Notes: generated from the sequence alone by a model not told the origin. A stretch of DNA of 32,000 bases from Candidatus Nitrospira inopinata (GCF_001458695.1 NZ_LN885086.1:2970001-3002000), one strand, 5' to 3'; positions 1 to 9,538 are shown, counted from the first letter of the stretch. Program-made: numbers and translations.

Positions 1-752
1 TCATCTCGGTGGATGAAGACTATCGCATCACCCGCTTCGACGAGAAGCCGGCCAATCCAACGCCCCTGCCGGACAATCCCACCCACGCGTTCGCGTCCAT
101 GGGCATCTATCTGTTCCGGACCAAGGCCATTCGCGAACACCTCATCGGGGATGCCCAAGAAGGAGGTGCCCATGATTTCGGCAGAAACATCATCCCGCGG
201 ATGATCGGGCAACACCGCGTCTATGCCTTTAAGTTTCAGGACGCCAACAAAAAGGCGATCCAGTATTGGCGCGACATCGGCACGTTGGACGCCTTCTGGG
301 AAGCCAACATGGACCTGGTGTCCGTGGATCCCCAGTTCAATTTGTATGATCCCGAATGGCCGATCCGCACCTATCAAGGTCAATTTCCCCCGGCCAAATT
401 CGTGTTCGCCCAGGATTTTCAAGGGGGCCGGATGGGAGTCGCCCTTGATTCCATCGTCAGCGGCGGGTGCATCGTTTCCGGCGCGCGGGTGCAAAATTCG
501 ATTCTTTCACCCAACGTCAGGGTGCAAGATCACGCCGACGTGCGGGAATCCATCCTCATGGACAACGTGCAGATCGGCCCCCACAGCCGCATCAAACGGG
601 CGATCATCGACAAAGACGTCGTCATCCCGCCCCGCACGGAAATCGGATACGATCGCGAGGCCGACGCCAAGCGATTCAAAGTGACCGATTCCGGAATCGT
701 CGTGATTTCGAAGGGAATGGACCTGCATGCCGCCATCGATTCATCCGGTTGA
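1..752 (+). CDS. glgC: Glucose-1-phosphate adenylyltransferase, C-terminal part (5' end lies outside the window)
   Basis: The frame is open from base 3. The translation (FDEKPANP..., AFASMGIYLF, WRDIGTLDAFWEANMDL, then a left-handed beta-helix repeat region SIVSGGCIVSGARVQNSILSPNVRV) matches the conserved GlgC architecture. Stop is TGA at 750-752. Confidence 0.9.
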   Translation, partial: ISVDEDYRITRFDEKPANPTPLPDNPTHAFASMGIYLFRTKAIREHLIGDAQEGGAHDFGRNIIPRMIGQHRVYAFKFQDANKKAIQYWRDIGTLDAFWEANMDLVSVDPQFNLYDPEWPIRTYQGQFPPAKFVFAQDFQGGRMGVALDSIVSGGCIVSGARVQNSILSPNVRVQDHADVRESILMDNVQIGPHSRIKRAIIDKDVVIPPRTEIGYDREADAKRFKVTDSGIVVISKGMDLHAAIDSSG

Positions 753-2583
753 CCTGATCGACGCCCTGCGCCAGAAACACCTGACTCCCGCCATCGTTTT
801 TCTGACGTCGCGTCGCGCCTGCGACGAGGCGATGGAATCGTTCGACCACGCCGCCGTCGTCCTCCCTCCCGCTCGTCAAGAGGCCATCGACGCCGTGCTC
901 CAACAGGTGATCGCGCAATACCCGAGCGTGGCGGACCATCCGTTGATTCCCACCGTGCGACGGATCGGCGTCGCGGCGCACCATGCGGGGCATCTGCCAT
1001 CCTGGAAAATCGCCGTCGAAGAACTGATGCGGCAAGGCTGCCTCGACGCCGTCTTCGCCACGACCACGTTGGCCGCCGGTGTGGACTTTCCCGCCCGCAC
1101 CGTCGTTATCACCCAATCCAGCATTCGCAAAGCGCGGGACTTTACCGATCTGACGATCGGCGAAGTACAACAAATAGCCGGACGCGCGGGGCGGCGCGGA
1201 AAAGACCAGGTCGGCTTCGCCGTCGTAGCCCCCTCGCCCTATATCGACCTGAGCGTGCTCACCAAGGGATTGACCGGCCATCCGGAACCCATCGACAGTC
1301 AATTCACCATCACCTATCCGATGGTGCTCAACCTGCTGAAGGCTCACCCCCTTGAGCAGATTCAGTCGATCCTGGCCAAGAGCTTCGCCCAGTTTCAGCT
1401 CAATCGGCGCGCCGAGCTCTTGGAACGCAAACTGGACGCCCTGCACGTTCAGATGGAGCCCTTCGGCCCCCGAATTTGCACCGATTGGATCACTCAATGG
1501 CAGACCTTCGACCAAGCCCGTCGGCAACGTCCACAACGCCACCAGGCCCGCCATGAGTCGCCGGAACTGACTGCGCGCTTTCACTTCATGACACCGGGCC
1601 GGGTCGTTGGTCTCGCCCGTGGGCGCGGCGTCGTGCTCCGGCAGTATCGGAGCAAGGGCCAGCGACACCCCATGATTTCGGTGCTCCGGCCGAACGGCTC
1701 CGTGACGGAATGTCCCGCCGCCGCCGTGGTCGAGATCTTCGACCGCGTGTTCGATTGCGAAGAAACCGCCTCGTTTCCCTGGTGCTCGGCGGCGTCTTTT
1801 GACGAGCTCTGCTATCAACTGACGGAACTGCCTCCGCGACTGCCGGTTCTGCCGATTTTGGTTTCCCACGAGTCGGCCCCCCTTCCCGACACCGTCGTTC
1901 AGTCCCTCGGCGATTTTCCCTGCCCGACCTGTCCTTCCCGTCCGGCCTGCCAGAAGGATTTCGCCACCGCGCACCGGCTCCGTCAGGAACAGCACCGCCA
2001 CGTCAAATCCATTCAAGCCCTGCGAGCCAGTCTGTGGCACCGATTTCAAGAGCGGGTCGACGTGCTCCAGAAATTCGGGTATTTGACCCCCTCCGCACAA
2101 CTGACGGCCGAGGGAGAATGGGCGCGATTGATCCGGATCGACCATTCGTTGCTGATCACGGAATTGATCCGAGCCGAGGCGTTCAGCGGCGTCGAGCCCG
2201 CCGTTCTCACGGGCATCCTGGCCAGCATCGCGCACGACGATGATCGCCCCGGCGCCTTTCCTCGCATCAGCCCGGGCTTGAGCTCACTATTGGGCCAAGT
2301 GCGAAAACTGGCGGAGAGTCTGTCACCGTACGAAGAGCCGCCGCTTCTGAGGGCCGATGTCGCGGCCATCGCCGAACGGTGGGTGGCCGACCCCAACCTC
2401 ACATGGATCGGACTCTGCCGCATGACCACGATGGCGGAAGGCGATCTCTACAGGCTTCTGGCCAGGACCTTGGAGTTCCTCTCGCAGATCCACGCTTTGC
2501 ATGCTACGCATCCAGGACTGGCGGACACGGCTTCAAGGGCCATCGCCCTCATTCGCCGGGGAGTGTTGGAGGAATTGCCATGA
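727..2583 (+). CDS. Ski2/HelY-type helicase, C-terminal half only (RecA2 domain, arch/KOW-like insertion, DSHCT-like C-terminal domain)
   Basis: Begins exactly at helicase motif IV (PAIVFLTSRRACDEA). This is followed by GVAAHHAGHLPSWK, motif V FATTTLAAGVDFPARTVVI and motif VI QIAGRAGRRGKD. Next come a KOW-like segment (TPGRVVGLARGRGVVLRQY), a Cys cluster (CPTCPSRPAC) and a DSHCT-like tail (LTAEGEWARLIRIDHSLLITELI...EGDLYRLLARTLEFLSQI). No motif I, II or III is present. The ATG at 727 overlaps the last 26 nt of glgC. Confidence 0.8.
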   Translation: MPPSIHPVDLIDALRQKHLTPAIVFLTSRRACDEAMESFDHAAVVLPPARQEAIDAVLQQVIAQYPSVADHPLIPTVRRIGVAAHHAGHLPSWKIAVEELMRQGCLDAVFATTTLAAGVDFPARTVVITQSSIRKARDFTDLTIGEVQQIAGRAGRRGKDQVGFAVVAPSPYIDLSVLTKGLTGHPEPIDSQFTITYPMVLNLLKAHPLEQIQSILAKSFAQFQLNRRAELLERKLDALHVQMEPFGPRICTDWITQWQTFDQARRQRPQRHQARHESPELTARFHFMTPGRVVGLARGRGVVLRQYRSKGQRHPMISVLRPNGSVTECPAAAVVEIFDRVFDCEETASFPWCSAASFDELCYQLTELPPRLPVLPILVSHESAPLPDTVVQSLGDFPCPTCPSRPACQKDFATAHRLRQEQHRHVKSIQALRASLWHRFQERVDVLQKFGYLTPSAQLTAEGEWARLIRIDHSLLITELIRAEAFSGVEPAVLTGILASIAHDDDRPGAFPRISPGLSSLLGQVRKLAESLSPYEEPPLLRADVAAIAERWVADPNLTWIGLCRMTTMAEGDLYRLLARTLEFLSQIHALHATHPGLADTASRAIALIRRGVLEELP

Positions 2584-2674
2584 GGACACGTTCTCTTCTG
2601 CTTCAAACCGGCACGTCGGCGGCCAGTCGTTTGACGGAAGATTGCCGCCGAATCATGAGCGGTCAGGTGAGGCC

Positions 2675-3745
2675 ATGACGACGGACGAGCTCGAACAACT
2701 CTTGGCGCAACAGCCGGTTGCGCTTTTGCATCGCTTGGCCCGCGGACGGGTGCATCGCCATTTCCGCGCCGGCAAGCGGCGCCTGATCGAGCTGTTGCTT
2801 CAACATTCAAGCCAAAACCTGGCGGGCCTCGAGTCGGATTTGCAAACATTGCTCGCCGAGCGGCAGGCTCTTCCTCAGCGACCTAAAACTCCCGCACGGC
2901 GAAAAGAAGAACCGGCGCCCGCCCATCCCAAACGTCAACAGTCCCCGACCACGGGAGGAGAGTCGGAAACGAGCGGACCGGCTGTCTCGCTCGCAAACTG
3001 GCTTGAAGGGATCGGCGTTCCCCCGCCTCAACCGTTCGTGCCCGACCCCTGGCAGGTCGAAGCCTTGGCCGCCCTGGCCGACGGCGACGTCGTCGTCAGC
3101 GTACCGACCGGCAGTGGAAAGACCTACGTGGCGGTCGAAGCCGCCCGCCGCGCCATGGAGGATAACCGCACGGTGATCTACACGTCGCCGCTCAAAGCCT
3201 TGTCCAACACCAAGTTCACTGAATTTTCCCGTCTCTTCGGACCCGAGAAGGTGGGGATTCTCACCGGCGACCGTCAGGAAAACGGTCAGGCTCCCCTGCT
3301 GATCATGACGACGGAGATTCTACGGAACCTGCTTTATGACGCGGCAAGCGGCGAAATCGACGTGCGGTTGGATACCTTGGGGCTCGTCATCTTGGACGAA
3401 TCGCAGTATCTGGCCGATCCGGAGCGGGGTGTCGTCTGGGAAGAAACCATCATCTTTTGCCCATCGCAGGCCAGACTCCTGCTCCTGTCGGCGTCCATCG
3501 GCAATCCGCAGGACATCGCCGACTGGCTGTCGTCGATCCGCACGACGACCTGCCGCTTGATCCGGCACAACAAACGCACCGTGCCGCTCCGCGCGGGCTA
3601 TCTCCATCCCAACGGCAAATTGGTGCCGCTGTTCAAGACGGCGGCGATCCCCTACGGCCACCCCAATCAGCTCCACCCGGAAGCCAAACGGCTCTTCATG
3701 CAATATGAGGAAGAAACGATGCCGTCCGGTCGTCCCAGACGGTAA
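2675..3745 (+). CDS. Ski2/HelY-type helicase, N-terminal half only (about 130-aa extension plus RecA1 domain)
   Basis: Contains the Q-motif region PFVPDPWQVEAL, motif I VPTGSGKTY, motif Ia TSPLKALSNTKF, LIMTTEILRN, motif II ILDESQYL and motif III LLSASIGN. It ends at RTVPLRAGYL, the RecA1/RecA2 linker. The ATG at 2675 is preceded by GGTGAGG (SD-like) 3 nt upstream. The longer 2501 start overlaps the upstream ORF and was not favoured. Confidence 0.8.
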   Translation: MTTDELEQLLAQQPVALLHRLARGRVHRHFRAGKRRLIELLLQHSSQNLAGLESDLQTLLAERQALPQRPKTPARRKEEPAPAHPKRQQSPTTGGESETSGPAVSLANWLEGIGVPPPQPFVPDPWQVEALAALADGDVVVSVPTGSGKTYVAVEAARRAMEDNRTVIYTSPLKALSNTKFTEFSRLFGPEKVGILTGDRQENGQAPLLIMTTEILRNLLYDAASGEIDVRLDTLGLVILDESQYLADPERGVVWEETIIFCPSQARLLLLSASIGNPQDIADWLSSIRTTTCRLIRHNKRTVPLRAGYLHPNGKLVPLFKTAAIPYGHPNQLHPEAKRLFMQYEEETMPSGRPRR

Positions 3746-3746
3746 T

Positions 3747-4778
3747 CTAGAACCGATAGAGAATACCCGCCGTCAGACCGTGCCGCAGTGATTCCATTTC
3801 GGTCAAGGGGTAGGAAAATGACTGCCCATCGGCCTGGTGGCTCTTCCACGTCCCATCGATCAACCGATTCCACCAGACGCGATAGCCCACATAGCCGGAG
3901 AATGAAGTCGTCAACGACACCGTCGCCATGATATCGGCATCCGCACCGAAACCGATGCCCCTCATCGTAAAGCTGGGATCTTGAAACTCACTCGGCACGC
4001 GAAGGTGGTGGGTGTCGTCGTTCGTAACGAAATTGATCGGCTTGATAATCACCGATCCGCGCACGCTGAACCAGCGAGTCAGGTGATAATCGGCTTGAAT
4101 CCCGGTTCGAAGCGAATACCAGGTATTGGTGTTGGAAACGACAAGAATATTATTGGAAGTTGGAGCAGCTCCCGGGTCACAGAGGGGGTTGACGCCGGGC
4201 GTGACCGGATCAAGGTCGATGGAGGATCCCGCCGCCGAGCAGAGTACTTGACGCACGCCATAGGCGCGATGGCGCTGCCGCCAGTATTGAAACCCACCGA
4301 TTGCCTCAAGATTGCCCTTGCCGTGGTGAAATTCCAGCACCCTGGCGCCAACGTCCGCGTTCAAATACCACACGCCGGACCCGTCCAGATCACTGTGAGT
4401 CCTCAAGGACGGAGCTCCGCCATCCGGTGTGAGAAAGTCGTCATCCGTGAGACGACCGCCGCCGATGCGGGCGCCGCCGACGTTCAAGCGACCGAACCAT
4501 CGCGGTCCCACCGACACCTTGGCGGTCAACTCCACGATATTGGTCGAGTGGTCCTCATAAATCAGGCGAGACGTCGGATTCCCAAGCGGCGGGAACGATG
4601 AGGCGTTGTGGCTCCATCTTGTCTCGCCGACACTGATCCAGGTTCCAAGACCAAGCTCGACGGCCACCCGCTTGGCCGGCGGCGGCTCTTGAGCTGAAAC
4701 CGAGCCGATCGGTAGCAGCAAGCAAAGGGCCGCGGCCGCCGGCAACGAACCGATTACAGAGGAGCGGCATCTTGTCAT
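3747..4778 (-). CDS. Omptin-family (peptidase A26-like) outer-membrane beta-barrel protease, with signal peptide
   Basis: Signal peptide is MTRCRSSVIGSLPAAAALCLLLPIGSVSAQE. GGGRLTDDDFLTPDGG...RTHSD aligns with E. coli OmpT GGNMVDQDWMDSS...SRHPD (catalytic D83/D85, recalled from memory). NDDTHH aligns with OmpT DNDEHY (D210/H212). The C-terminus TAGILYRF resembles OmpT TAGLKYTF, an aromatic OMP terminus. The start at 4778 forms an ATGA overlap with the upstream ORF. Confidence 0.6.
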   Translation of the reverse strand: MTRCRSSVIGSLPAAAALCLLLPIGSVSAQEPPPAKRVAVELGLGTWISVGETRWSHNASSFPPLGNPTSRLIYEDHSTNIVELTAKVSVGPRWFGRLNVGGARIGGGRLTDDDFLTPDGGAPSLRTHSDLDGSGVWYLNADVGARVLEFHHGKGNLEAIGGFQYWRQRHRAYGVRQVLCSAAGSSIDLDPVTPGVNPLCDPGAAPTSNNILVVSNTNTWYSLRTGIQADYHLTRWFSVRGSVIIKPINFVTNDDTHHLRVPSEFQDPSFTMRGIGFGADADIMATVSLTTSFSGYVGYRVWWNRLIDGTWKSHQADGQSFSYPLTEMESLRHGLTAGILYRF

Positions 4779-5053
4779 CGTTTGCCCCCGCCTCGCTGAA
4801 GAGTGACCGTATCGACGCACCGTTGCACCTTTTCCGGCATCGTCCGTTCGCAAGCAGCTCGTATGGCCTGATCGTCCAGCTCACGCTGAAGATGGAGCGA
4901 AAACCACACCAGCCACGTTCCGACCGCCGCTAGGAGAAGAATTCCGCCCGCCACATAGCCCCAGATCATCCAGGGGGACAGCCTCCGATCGGAAACAACG
5001 GGCCTCGTCTCTTTTTCCGAGTCAGTGACCAGATGAACCGGCGGCATCGACAT
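4775..5053 (-). CDS. Small single-pass membrane protein of unknown function (92 aa)
   Basis: The ATG at 5053 is preceded by GGGAGG 7 nt upstream. There is one clear TM segment (WMIWGYVAGGILLLAAVGTWLVWF) followed by a ~45-aa tail with two Cys. Its stop overlaps the omptin-like start (ATGA at 4775-4778). No family was recognised. Confidence 0.5.
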   Translation of the reverse strand: MSMPPVHLVTDSEKETRPVVSDRRLSPWMIWGYVAGGILLLAAVGTWLVWFSLHLQRELDDQAIRAACERTMPEKVQRCVDTVTLQRGGGKR

Positions 5054-5354: not shown

Positions 5355-5430
5355 GCCGAGGTAGCTCAGTTGGCAGAGCACAGCCCTGAAAAGGCTGGTG
5401 TCGACAGTTCGATTCTGTCCCTCGGCACCA
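5355..5430 (+). tRNA. tRNA-Phe (anticodon GAA), 76 nt with encoded CCA
   Basis: GCCGAGGTAGCTCAGTTGGCAGAGCACAGCCCTGAAAAGGCTGGTGTCGACAGTTCGATTCTGTCCCTCGGCACCA. The 7-bp acceptor stem is GCCGAGG/CCTCGGC, with D-loop AGCTCAGTTGGCAGAGC. The anticodon stem CAGCC/GGCTG carries loop CTGAAAA (GAA at 5388-5390). The T-arm is GACAG-TTCGATT-CTGTC, with discriminator A followed by CCA. Confidence 0.95.
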
Positions 5431-5614: not shown

Positions 5615-5643
5615 TTGACCGTCCATCACCATCGGTCTAGACT
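5615..5643 (+). promoter_or_regulatory. Candidate sigma70-type promoter for the His-rich protein gene
   Basis: TTGACC (5615-5620), a 17-nt spacer, then TAGACT (5638-5643), about 47 nt upstream of the GTG start. The spacer contains the inverted repeat GACCG...CGGTC. Prediction by eye only. Confidence 0.35.
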
Positions 5644-5689
5644 TTGCTCATCGACTTGCAACCAACCTTCCACGAAAGGAGCCCCCGCC

Positions 5690-6037
5690 GTGAGCGATCA
5701 CCCGATTCACGATCAGCACAGCCATCGACACGGAACCGGTTGCGGCCATGCCGCTGTTCTTCATGACGGCCACACGGATTATCTGCATGACGGCCACCTG
5801 CATCACCTCCATGGCGACCATGTCGATGAACATCGCCTGGACGTGACGCAACAGAACCCCGTTGCCTGCACGCCGACCCATCGCTGCGAGGGTCACGATG
5901 CGGATCATCGCCACGGCGCAACCTGCGGGCATCAAGCCGTCCCTCACGGCGATCACGTGGACTATTTGGTTGCCGGCCATTTGCACTTCGCCCATGGGGC
6001 CCATTGCGACGACCATGGAGCCGTGCGGTTCGCCTAG
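5690..6037 (+). CDS. Histidine-rich putative metal-binding protein made of two tandem ~45-aa repeats (115 aa)
   Basis: The GTG at 5690 is preceded by AAGGAG (5676-5681) at 8-nt spacing. Repeat 1 is HRHGTGCGHAAVLHDGHTDYLHDGHLHHLHGDHVDEH. Repeat 2 is HRHGATCGHQAVPHGDHVDYLVAGHLHFAHGAHCDDH. About a quarter of the residues are His. The longer 5615 start lacks an SD. Confidence 0.65.
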   Translation: MSDHPIHDQHSHRHGTGCGHAAVLHDGHTDYLHDGHLHHLHGDHVDEHRLDVTQQNPVACTPTHRCEGHDADHRHGATCGHQAVPHGDHVDYLVAGHLHFAHGAHCDDHGAVRFA

Positions 6038-7512: not shown

Positions 7513-7986
7513 TCAGCAGTCGCTGCGGCCGATGTTCATCCATGGAAAGAGTGAATGATCGTTTACGACAAGAACCGATGATTCGAGAGATCGATGACCC
7601 TGGCCATGACACCACCTCGGTGGCTGACCGACGGGGAAGTCCGTCGGCCACCCGTACATGTGCCCATGCTCCTCCCGTACAGAGCAGGGCACCAGGACCG
7701 TCAATGGGATGTTGCCGCCTGATTCCTCTGTTAGAGAACTGCATTCTCCTCCTCCGGCTCCATCCGGCGAGCCGGCTTTGCGCAACATCCGATCCATCGG
7801 CACACCAGCCTGAACGGGTCCGGATGAGCCAGGCCGAGGGATTGATCGACCTGATCCGTCGCTCGACCTGATCGGTCTGCCGGTCGTCGGCTTCATCAAG
7901 AAGCTTGTTGAACACCGAACAAGCGGATCGAACACGAAGGCGAGCGGCAGGTAGGCCACCCACACCCCCTCCGAAGCCATGTACAT
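7513..7986 (-). CDS. Low-confidence candidate ORF immediately downstream of the Fur-family gene (N-terminal hydrophobic segment, Cys/His-containing C-terminal part)
   Basis: The ATG at 7986 lies 12 nt after the fur stop, with GAAAGG 5 nt upstream. The translation is MYMASEGVWVAYLPLAFVFDPLV...CSVREEHGHMYGWPTDFPVGQPPRWCHGQGH.... Third-position GC is high in parts but uneven, and another minus-strand frame is also open here. It may equally be decayed or non-coding DNA. Confidence 0.25.
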   Translation of the reverse strand: MYMASEGVWVAYLPLAFVFDPLVRCSTSFLMKPTTGRPIRSSDGSGRSIPRPGSSGPVQAGVPMDRMLRKAGSPDGAGGGECSSLTEESGGNIPLTVLVPCSVREEHGHMYGWPTDFPVGQPPRWCHGQGHRSLESSVLVVNDHSLFPWMNIGRSDC

Positions 7987-7997
7987 CGCCGCCTTTC

Positions 7998-8414
7998 TTA
8001 GCGACATTGCGGACACCATCCGAGAAACTCAAGACTATGGCTATCGACCGCAAACTGAGTCTGTGCTTCGATCACCGAAGTCAGTTTCTTGATCGGACAC
8101 ACCATCAAGTCCACGATCTTGCCACATCCGCGACATTGGATGTGATGGTGATGCTCCCGGCCATGTCGAACCTCATATCGCATCTGACCATCATGGAGGC
8201 CGACCGTCGTGACGAGTCCCAGCTTCTCAAGCATGGCCAGATTGCGATACACGGTGACGAGATCAATTGGCATTCGAGCCTTCGCCAGCCGAGCGTGCAG
8301 CTCCGCCGCGGTCATCGGGAGTGGGCTCTGCTCAAGAATCCCAAGAATGGCTCTTCGGGCCTTCGTGAGTTTCTTGCCACCGGCCTTCAGTCTTTCGATG
8401 ATCGAGTCCGTCAT
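7998..8414 (-). CDS. Fur-family transcriptional regulator (Zur suspected from genomic context)
   Basis: Winged-helix N-terminus (LTKARRAILGILEQSPLPMTAAELH...VTVYRNLAMLEKLGLV). Metal sites are HGREHHHHIQCRGCGK and the C-terminal CPQCR (CxxC...CxxC). The start is taken at MTDSIIERLK (8414). An alternative start at 8444 is possible. Confidence 0.85.
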   Translation of the reverse strand: MTDSIIERLKAGGKKLTKARRAILGILEQSPLPMTAAELHARLAKARMPIDLVTVYRNLAMLEKLGLVTTVGLHDGQMRYEVRHGREHHHHIQCRGCGKIVDLMVCPIKKLTSVIEAQTQFAVDSHSLEFLGWCPQCR

Positions 8415-8767
8415 GGGCAGAGTCCGTCGCGGGCGAATCATCACATGCAGACGATTTGCGATTATCAGTTCCGTTCTCTCCTGTCAAGGGTTGCACCGAC
8501 CGGTTTCCTTTTCCCAACGACACATGTAACCGGCCGATGCACGATCCGGTCATCAACCACGCTTCGTGACCCCCGTCATCCGGATTCGGCCGGTCCATCA
8601 ACGGCGCCCGACACACGAGCGGCTATGCCAGTACCGCCGCAACTCCTCCGATCGGCGGTCTCCCTTTCATCTTGCGACCGGTCTCAGAGAAGACCTTGCT
8701 GCTCTCACCTCCTCGCGAGCCGATCTCGCTCTTTCTCCCGCGCGACGGCCCATGCTACGATGGCGCC

Positions 8768-9538
8768 ATGTTTGTGGATACCCACACCCATCTCGATGAC
8801 GCCCGTTACAGCCACGACCGGGACGCCGTGATGGCCCGCGCGCGCGAGGCCGGGGTCGAAGCCTTTGTCACGATCGGCTGTGATCTTTCATCCAGCCTGG
8901 CCGCCGTCGCCCTTGCCGACCAGTATGATTCGGTCTACGCGGCTATCGGAGTCCATCCCCACGAAGTCCGACACATCGCCGATGGCTGGTATGACGAACT
9001 CCTCCGGCTGGCGCGGCACAAGAAAGTCGTGGCCTATGGGGAAATCGGCCTCGATTATCACTACAACCACTCGTCGCCCAAGGAACAGCAGGACCGGTTC
9101 CGCGAGCAGGTGCAACTCGCCCGCGAACTCAAGCTGCCAGTCATCGTCCATACGAGGGAAGCGCAAGAGGACACGATCGCGATTTTACGAGAAGAACAGG
9201 CGTCGGAAGTCGGCGGGGTGTTTCACTGCTTTTCAGGAGATGCGTGGCTGGCTAAGGACGCGCTCGATCTTGGATTCTATCTGTCGTTTTCCGGCATCGT
9301 GACGTTTCAGAACGCCGCCATGTTGCGGGAGATCGCCAAGACCGTTCCTTTGGATCGGCTGTTGATTGAGACGGATTGCCCTTACCTTGCGCCGGTCCCT
9401 TATCGCGGGAAACGAAACGAGCCCGCCTATGTCGCCCACGTAGCCGACAAACTGGCGGCGATTCATGGGACCTTGTCTCCGACGGACATCGGATTCCGCA
9501 CGACTGAAAACGCCAAGCGCCTGTTCAAAATCGCTTGA
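8768..9538 (+). CDS. tatD: TatD-family metal-dependent hydrolase/DNase
   Basis: Canonical N-terminus MFVDTHTHLD, then GVHPH, GEIGLDYHY, PVIVHTREA, FHCFSG and IETDCPYL. The start was chosen at the conserved MFVDTH rather than the 8672 ORF start. Confidence 0.9.
   Translation: MFVDTHTHLDDARYSHDRDAVMARAREAGVEAFVTIGCDLSSSLAAVALADQYDSVYAAIGVHPHEVRHIADGWYDELLRLARHKKVVAYGEIGLDYHYNHSSPKEQQDRFREQVQLARELKLPVIVHTREAQEDTIAILREEQASEVGGVFHCFSGDAWLAKDALDLGFYLSFSGIVTFQNAAMLREIAKTVPLDRLLIETDCPYLAPVPYRGKRNEPAYVAHVADKLAAIHGTLSPTDIGFRTTENAKRLFKIA

Follow-up and report, generated by a model that had tools for sequence, protein, structure and literature searches.

The window analyzed here, a stretch of 32,000 nucleotides (nt) from Candidatus Nitrospira inopinata (GCF_001458695.1, NZ_LN885086.1:2970001-3002000), contains two same-strand open reading frames (ORFs), of 618 and 356 amino acids (aa), which are complementary pieces of one helicase of the Ski2/Mtr4/HelY type. 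The second ORF carries the first RecA-like domain of the motor (RecA1) and is referred to as the N-half; the first carries most of the second domain (RecA2), the arch and the DSHCT domain, and is referred to as the C-half. The C-half is encoded first. This swapped order had been proposed in a first-pass annotation made from the sequence alone and is borne out by complementary matches of the two proteins to Pfam and NCBIfam profiles and to Mtr4.

Gene organization of the locus

The coordinates of both ORFs were confirmed and are listed with the other features of the locus in Table 1. The region is ordinary chromosome and the neighbors are housekeeping genes. The last 26 nt of glgC are shared with the beginning of the C-half gene, an overlap that is present in nearly all Nitrospiraceae loci. 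The second ORF, when called mechanically, reaches back to position 2501; since all homologues begin with MTT[DE]ELE, its start was set at the conserved ATG at 2675, from which 356 aa are encoded. As first described, the N-half gene is separated from its neighbor by 91 nt and is preceded by a Shine-Dalgarno-like sequence of its own.

Table 1. Features of the two-gene helicase locus in the window
Feature	Position	Strand	Basis or remark
glgC, 3' part (glucose-1-phosphate adenylyltransferase), cut by the window edge	9..752	+	Pfam NTP_transferase, Hexapep_GlmU, LbH_GLGC
C-half gene, 618 aa: RecA2 minus its first strand, arch, DSHCT	727..2583	+	
RecA2 remainder, aa 1-230	727..1416	+	aligns to Mtr4 chain residues 324-526
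Motif IV, PAIVFLTSRR	787..816	+	
Motif V, FATTTLAAGVDFPA	1054..1095	+	
Motif VI, QQIAGRAGRRG	1168..1200	+	
Arch/stalk helices with small beta-barrel (KOW-like) insertion, aa 231-457	1417..2097	+	joined AlphaFold2 model, Foldseek
DSHCT (ratchet/helical bundle), aa 458-614	2098..2568	+	Pfam PF08148
Bridging mini-ORF, 32 codons	2580..2678	+	ATG overlaps C-half stop (ATGA); TGA overlaps N-half ATG (ATGA)
Intergenic spacer, 91 nt	2584..2674	+	
Shine-Dalgarno-like AGGTGAGG before the N-half start codon	2665..2672	+	direct reading of the sequence
N-half gene, 356 aa: N-terminal extension, RecA1, first RecA2 beta-hairpin and helix	2675..3745	+	
N-terminal helical extension, aa 1-65, lineage-specific	2675..2869	+	conservation; model
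Pro/Arg/Gln-rich variable linker, aa 66-100, predicted disordered	2870..2974	+	pLDDT <50 at residues 67-100; not conserved
RecA1, aa 119-300, including the Q-motif region and motif Ia (PLKALSN)	3029..3574	+	aligns to Mtr4 chain residues 71-245
Motif I, GSGKT	3110..3124	+	
Motif II, DESQ, residues 241-244	3395..3406	+	
Motif III, SAS	3488..3496	+	
RecA2 first strand/hairpin and following helix, aa 301-348, RTVPLRAGYLHPNGKLVPLF...HPEAKRLFMQYEEE	3575..3718	+	on the N-half; Mtr4 alignment, model

Family assignment

To our knowledge, the helicase core of all characterized Ski2-like helicases is one polypeptide. Here the superfamily 2 (SF2) motifs Q, I, Ia, II, III, IV, V and VI are all present and are spread over two polypeptides encoded in different frames. 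The C-half matched the Pfam families Helicase_C (E=3e-6) and DSHCT (PF08148, E=3.2e-24; score of 86 bits, cut-off 22.7; positions 3-170 of the 172 in the profile), while MTR4-like_stalk was found below threshold only (E=0.055). The N-half matched DEAD (E=8e-22), ResIII and DEXQc_Suv3, the Suv3 DExQ model (E=2.5e-8). Hel308-type models of NCBIfam were matched at complementary positions, about 28-215 by the N-half and about 246-440 by the C-half. The best solved relative of both halves in sequence searches is yeast Mtr4, to which the N-half aligns over chain residues 71-257 (E=2.5e-39) and the C-half over residues 324-607 and 782-967 (E=7.5e-36). The two ORFs are read as pieces of one helicase because the profile positions are complementary and the best relative is shared. 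Their common ancestry, which the first-pass annotation had proposed to verify, is also reflected in the trees described below, where both fall in the same HelY-like subclade.

Two other assignments were tried and rejected. The halves reach 62-75 bits with the Hel308 equivalog models of NCBIfam, against cut-offs of 887-1216, and the matches to Hel308 structures in the PDB are far weaker than those to Mtr4. Hachiman HamB and the other defense helicases of PADLOC gave generic core-motif matches only (20-57 bits over some 90-190 residues), and no HamA gene adjoins the locus.

Motif II reads DESQ without exception in proteins of the kind found in the window, hereafter the Nitrospira type, including a relative of 60% identity (P0241). 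It reads DE[AIT]H in the fused relatives examined and in the other split lineages.

Position of the cut and structural model

According to the first-pass annotation, the helicase was split exactly between its RecA domains, with a C-half starting precisely at motif IV and an N-half ending in the RecA1/RecA2 linker. These details required correction. The N-half runs about 55 aa beyond RTVPL and forms, in the model described below, a beta-hairpin (strands 305-310 and 316-318) and a helix (335-348). Its segment RTVPLRAGYLHP aligns with 'RPTPLQHYLFP', the first strand of RecA2 in Mtr4; in the RecA fold of SF2 helicases, a strand of this kind is the first strand of domain 2. The C-half starts about 20 aa ahead of motif IV, at the helix preceding it. 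The N-half followed by the C-half is collinear with fused HelY-like proteins of about 900 aa. Upon comparison with 29 fused relatives, the junction falls in a basic loop of highly variable length and nothing is lost or duplicated, as illustrated by the fused protein P0254 ('...HQRQRPSAY|VPPFSNIL...') and the two ends at the split ('...SGRPRR*' in the N-half, 'MPPSIHPVDL...' in the C-half). The cut is located inside RecA2, in the hypervariable basic loop that follows the first beta-strand/hairpin and a short helix.

An AlphaFold2 model was computed for a single chain in which the N-half was joined to the C-half at the natural junction, using an unpaired block alignment supplemented with natural fused relatives. 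The mean predicted local distance difference test score (pLDDT) was 82.5 and the predicted template modeling score 0.72. Only the junction (57), two loops of the arch and the N-terminal extension with its linker were of low confidence; the N-terminal helices, residues 3-65, scored 51-63. The model displays the arch/stalk insertion with its small beta-barrel between the RecA2/winged-helix region and the ratchet: two long helix pairs (576-622 and 761-805) flank strands located at 648-697. Foldseek matched the joined model to whole Mtr4 chains (E=5e-52, about 950 columns, template modeling score about 0.6, 23-25% identity) and also to Ski2, both well ahead of Hel308.

When the N-half was modeled alone, the RecA1 core lost only about 10 pLDDT points, while residues 301-350 fell from 78-92 in the joined model to 47-68, a contrast that is suggestive only as the N-half-alone model was built from a shallower alignment. 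This suggests that the tail of the N-half may be ordered only against the C-half. The alignments and the model further suggest that the N-half would donate a strand to the RecA2 domain of the other subunit.

Conservation and selection in Nitrospiraceae

The arrangement of the window recurs throughout the family. Among the best 80 of the 506 relatives retrieved from a scan of GTDB species genomes, all of them Nitrospiraceae, the order glgC, C-half, N-half is found in about 80 species genomes. The layout is present in the complete chromosome of N. moscoviensis NSP M-1, where the two genes lie at about 2,243,569-2,246,570 of NZ_CP011801.1, and in single-contig chromosomes of 4.1-4.4 Mb from metagenome-assembled genomes, the 4.4-Mb chromosome displaying the same called genes in the same layout. 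The halves are adjacent in 66 of the 67 Nitrospiraceae loci with enough flanking sequence, the window included. The first-pass annotation had called for a check of the assembly. A chimeric or circularly mis-joined contig could swap the halves of a normal gene, and the window most likely derives from a metagenome-assembled genome. With an identical order in some 80 independent species-level assemblies from different projects, among them the complete genome of the isolate N. moscoviensis, the probability of such an assembly or binning artifact is negligible.

At the nearest locus (L030), the two halves are 98.5% and 97.5% identical in amino-acid sequence to those of the window. For each half, more than 100 protein clusters were recovered at 79-99% identity under the source name Nitrospira, on contigs of up to 4.4 Mb. 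Their lengths are constant, mostly 618-620 aa for the C-half and about 350-357 aa for the N-half. One C-half of 79% identity (P0120) carries the NCBI name 'Petrachloros mirabilis', a cyanobacterium, all other close matches being Nitrospira; it is probably a contamination of the assembly rather than a transfer.

Both genes are under purifying selection. Across 303 usable pairs, the C-half has a median pairwise ratio of nonsynonymous to synonymous substitution rates (dN/dS) of 0.053 and the N-half one of 0.083. Within the C-half, the ratio is 0.038 for the RecA2 remainder, 0.077 for the arch and 0.05 for DSHCT; within the N-half, it is 0.146 for aa 1-118, 0.041 for RecA1 and 0.077 for aa 301-356, the tail that includes the putatively donated strand. 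Invariant positions amount to 237 of 618 in the C-half (82 species) and 139 of 356 in the N-half (66 species). Variation at motifs I, Ia, II, III, IV, V and VI is absent or almost absent in these 66-82 species, and no inactivating change was seen on their alignment, in agreement with the initial impression that the motifs are intact and the genes not decaying. The pair could nevertheless be regarded as a broken helY, a pseudogene pair produced by frameshift or rearrangement and drifting to loss. Annotators evidently took the pieces for fragments, to judge from names like 'helicase-related protein' and 'Putative Helicase (N-terminal...', and one C-half (L074) has an in-frame stop in the DSHCT region ('LTWIG*CRATT') of an otherwise conserved gene, which could be a sequencing error or a recent pseudogene. 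Low dN/dS values, constant lengths over more than 100 clusters of each half and invariant motifs leave this explanation hardly credible.

The N-terminal extension of the N-half (aa 1-65) is conserved in the Nitrospira type, locus L087 included, and lacking in the fused relatives examined, as it is in those other split lineages for which an N-half was read. It has no Pfam match and no similarity to the N-terminus of the fused protein P0260.

The gene junction

The spacer between the two genes is hypervariable among species in both sequence and length (-4 to 141 nt), and in four species the C-half and N-half genes overlap directly by 4 nt. Long hairpins are frequent: 31 of the 56 spacers of at least 45 nt fold with a z-score below -2 (median z=-2.25). 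The fold of the spacer in the window is not significant (z=-0.26). The hairpin arms are short tandem motifs that vary by species, such as GGACTGAG/CTCAGTCC, GTGAAGCGT/ACGTTTCAC and GGGGTA/TACCCC. The 10-mers of some spacers recur in the same locus above expectation (in L049 and L059, for instance, 13 against 1-2 expected), which hints at dispersed elements resembling repetitive extragenic palindromic sequences. Rfam gave no match in the spacer, and neither a sigma-70-like promoter nor a terminator on the + strand was found between the genes.

The edges of the spacer are much more uniform. The C-half ends in the codon CC[A/G] in 76 of 82 loci, a form that accounts for 53% of all proline codons; its stop is TGA in 77 of 82 loci, and the N-half starts with [A/G]TGAC in 65 of 66. 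Where a spacer exists, 34 of 62 loci contain a bridging ORF of 8-40 codons running from an [A/G]TG at the C-half stop to a TGA at the N-half start. The frame of this ORF is free of stops in 45 of the 62 loci, against 13 and 24 for the other two frames, and after shuffling 31% of spacers of the right phase are open; these statistics were not properly corrected for relatedness. Indels within spacer families preserve the frame of the bridging ORF, and its peptide is not conserved. No bridging ORF was seen in the Acidobacteriota loci described below. Synthesis of the N-half would appear to be tied to that of the C-half by termination-reinitiation, the bridging ORF acting as a candidate relay; given the incomplete control for relatedness, this is a lead.

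The same region bears on whether the two genes might yield one circularly permuted polypeptide, the C-half being fused to the N-half through read-through, frameshifting or protein splicing. Such a product might be imagined from the 4-nt overlaps and from the many spacers that are open in one frame, but this open frame is the frame of neither gene and terminates at TGA, the spacer peptides are not conserved, and no intein-like sequence was seen in a Pfam scan. The frame relation between the genes is not conserved either, phases 1, 0 and 2 occurring in 41, 16 and 9 loci. This explanation was accordingly given next to no probability: because all three phases occur, a permuted single polypeptide is excluded and the word 'permuted' applies to the gene order only.

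Other split and fused lineages

The distribution of the family was surveyed with a full HMMER search of 1.8 billion representatives, phyla other than that of the Nitrospiraceae being covered only through the representative-search matches and their contigs. At 40% identity or less, the relatives are for the most part fused proteins of about 800-1100 aa in which the match begins near residue 280, and a small number are C-halves beginning where the Nitrospira C-half does. Members of the P0253 family, which comprises more than 100 clusters named Acidobacteriota, have an N-half of 289-301 aa directly upstream of the C-half, at a distance of 129-157 nt, the gene order having been read from the loci of relatives and not from P0253 itself. 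The same N-to-C order is found in P0249 (gap of 26 nt), P0301 (gap of 39 nt) and P0340 (overlap of 11 nt). The N-halves of P0301 (L088) and P0340 (L090) end with a hairpin of the form 'RPV[DE]LRYGF...PL', and the hairpin is retained on the N-half in every N-half read from the other lineages, those of the Acidobacteriota (L082 and L085) included. The relative P0241, whose neighbors differ from those of the window, has the C-to-N order together with DESQ, the N-terminal extension and a bridging ORF. The C-half of P0256 (L091/L092) has no adjacent N-half, and the halves may be unlinked in this lineage. This C-half is an arch-less protein of 446 aa, followed by lytB as in the Acidobacteriota loci and preceded by a divergent glycosyltransferase gene. 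P0319, P0327 and P0272 resembled additional split C-halves but were set aside: they start at an internal methionine in motif IV and are probable truncated calls. A metagenome scan with P0241 as query found no match.

Splitting of this helicase is recurrent: at least four further lineages (the Acidobacteriota, P0249, P0301 and P0340) carry a cut in this loop, all in N-to-C order. The swapped C-to-N order is specific to the Nitrospira type among the lineages examined. The comparison with relatives proposed at the outset has uncovered fused, N-to-C split, unlinked and C-to-N split states, and the initial view that a permuted, split helicase is unusual was right about the swapped order and not about the split. 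No description of a split Ski2/HelY helicase was found in the literature searched.

Neighbor-joining trees were built from Kimura-corrected identity distances with bootstrap. The Acidobacteriota pair is sister to a fused protein of 977 aa with 100% bootstrap for both halves, and therefore its fission was probably independent of that in Nitrospira. The deeper nodes are weak (14-54% support). Together the sequences suggest at least two independent fissions at the same loop.

Proposed mechanism and origin

The two ORFs very probably encode the two subunits of one HelY/Ski2/Mtr4-type SF2 RNA helicase that was divided by gene fission and operates as an obligate heterodimer. A functional two-subunit helicase was one of the readings offered by the first-pass annotation, and it gains support from the lack of misassembly, the placement of both halves in the same subclade and the lack of inactivating changes. 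The N-subunit would provide RecA1, with the Q motif and motifs I-III, plus one strand of RecA2; the arch, the DSHCT/ratchet and the remainder of RecA2, where motifs IV-VI are located, would come from the C-subunit. In SF2 helicases, ATP is accommodated between RecA1, with motifs I/II, and RecA2, with motif VI. In the pair, the N-subunit would bind ATP through motifs I and II and the C-subunit would sense it through motif VI; as these motifs are on different chains and are all invariant, ATPase and unwinding activities should require the heterodimer. The subunits would be held together by the donated strand, along with ring contacts of the kind usual in Ski2-like helicases. The genes are presumed to be co-transcribed behind glgC, C-half then N-half, and their translation would be coupled through the 4-nt stop/start overlap or through the bridging ORF across the spacer.

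Several points weigh against this heterodimer. The structure was modeled as one joined chain and not as a multimer, so that strand complementation is deduced from homology and from pLDDT values, of which the N-half-alone set has the weakness already mentioned. The statistics of the bridging ORF carry the caveat on relatedness given above. Motif II is DESQ and not DExH, and the coupling chemistry may differ. Mutual binding and expression of the two proteins are likewise indirect deductions. Finally, linkage of the halves is not absolute, as seen in P0256 and in Nitrospira sp. CTOTU46610 (L024), where no N-half lies within 6 kb downstream of the C-half. This is the only Nitrospiraceae exception with ample flank, and it could reflect relocation, loss or a chimeric contig. 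In L024 (region 7861-9092), the gene after the C-half is an ORF resembling NAD-dependent epimerases/decarboxylases.

These unlinked cases, and the extra N-terminal domain that the Nitrospira N-half possesses, could be taken to mean that the halves work apart, the C-half binding RNA or serving as an adaptor, with no catalytic role, and the N-half being an ATPase module that operates with some other partner. We consider this improbable. The halves are adjacent in all the other Nitrospiraceae loci with enough flank, with coupling signals between the genes; the C-half has kept motifs IV-VI unchanged, down to the arginines of motif VI, which makes sense only beside a RecA1 ATP site; and a lone RecA1 carrying an orphan RecA2 strand is no known functional unit.

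Two routes to the swapped order explain the data of the two-subunit helicase equally well. Fission in canonical order followed by rearrangement of the two genes fits the data. Duplication in tandem, whether the gene was fused or already split, could also have been followed by loss of the outer halves, which was the second explanation of the first-pass annotation; no relics of deleted halves were found in the flanks (best E=0.4). The neighbor-joining tree neither places a canonical-order split lineage as sister to the Nitrospira type nor excludes such a placement.

Ski2-type helicases normally thread RNA through a closed ring and need a free 3' end. It is conceivable, if unlikely, that repeated and independent cutting at the same RecA2 loop is adaptive, not just tolerated, and yields a two-piece helicase assembled or opened on demand. 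Were this the case, the enzyme might be loaded onto internal RNA sites, or its activity might be controlled by subunit supply; in Nitrospira, the supply would be fixed by the relay ORF and the N-terminal domain would serve as a docking or targeting module.

Neighboring genes

Downstream of the pair, a 368-aa ORF (3747-4853, - strand) converges on the N-half gene, the two stop codons being 1 nt apart. Its product has a signal-peptide-like N-terminus and no Pfam match; the gene at the equivalent position in L001 has a faint match only, to an outer membrane protein beta-barrel. Further on, a tRNA-Phe gene (5355-5430) is located just upstream of a 140-aa ORF (5615-6037, + strand) that is extremely rich in histidine, with runs such as HDGHTDYLHDGHLHHLHGDHVDEH, and has no Pfam match. 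The latter may encode a metal-binding protein.

Comparison with known systems

The closest characterized counterpart is the bacterial HelY (MSMEG_3885 of M. smegmatis, Rv2092c of M. tuberculosis and SCO1631 of S. coelicolor), with which the Nitrospira pair shares RecA1, RecA2, arch and DSHCT. The likeness extends to the source name of the relatives, 'ATP-dependent RNA helicase HelY', and to the collinear fused proteins. The M. smegmatis enzyme is described, as cited in PMC8931766, as an RNA-stimulated ATPase that unwinds RNA in the 3'-to-5' direction (Uson et al. 2015), and the S. coelicolor protein is ribosome-associated under tetracycline (PMC7157823). By homology, the Nitrospira pair is predicted to be an RNA-stimulated ATPase and a 3'-to-5' RNA helicase. 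It differs from HelY in being made of two polypeptides instead of one, in its DESQ motif in place of DExH and in its additional N-terminal helical domain. Actinobacterial-looking fused sequences form a separate clade with only 28-30% identity to the Nitrospira type. Mtr4 and Ski2, the best solved-structure matches by sequence (E of about 1e-36 to 1e-39) and by fold, have the arch insertion and DSHCT in common with the pair, but each is one polypeptide of about 1000-1290 aa whose N-terminal region and partners are specific to eukaryotes.

The canonical-order split pairs (P0253 family, P0249, P0301 and P0340) resemble the Nitrospira pair in being cut at the same loop and encoded by adjacent genes of the same strand, and the hairpin 'RPVxL...PL' stays on the N-half in the Acidobacteriota, P0301 and P0340 as it does in Nitrospira. 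They are distinguished by their N-to-C order, by DE[AIT]H and by an N-half with a basic tail instead of the Nitrospira helical extension.

Several consequences follow for annotation and engineering. In hundreds of genomes of Nitrospira and Acidobacteriota, the two pieces are annotated as unrelated proteins, under the names 'helicase-related protein' and 'DEAD/DEAH box helicase', and a census by domain content would overlook a complete HelY in these organisms. The cut marks a permissive site for engineering two-piece or conditionally assembled Ski2/Mtr4-type helicases, and the pair would allow the motor's need for covalent continuity to be gauged in a simple bacterial setting. The apparent relay ORF offers a testable example of enforced co-translation of split subunits.

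Split helicase-containing enzymes whose two polypeptides act together include the reverse gyrase of Nanoarchaeum equitans, Cas3'/Cas3'' and UvsW/UvsW.1 of T4, in which it is an accessory module or a short C-terminal segment that is cut off from the helicase core. The Nitrospira cut, in contrast, crosses RecA2 in the motor core itself, and the ATP site would be shared between chains. The permutation-by-duplication model yields a C-then-N order of ancestral segments and is a candidate route to the Nitrospira order, but here it has led to no permuted single polypeptide and left no detected relics. In SF2 motors, ATP drives the movement of RecA2 relative to RecA1, both being part of the same chain. 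The Nitrospira pair is a two-subunit HelY with a cut through RecA2 that recurs in other bacteria, and it is set apart by its reversed gene order and an apparent relay ORF; the known working of these helicases is not overturned.

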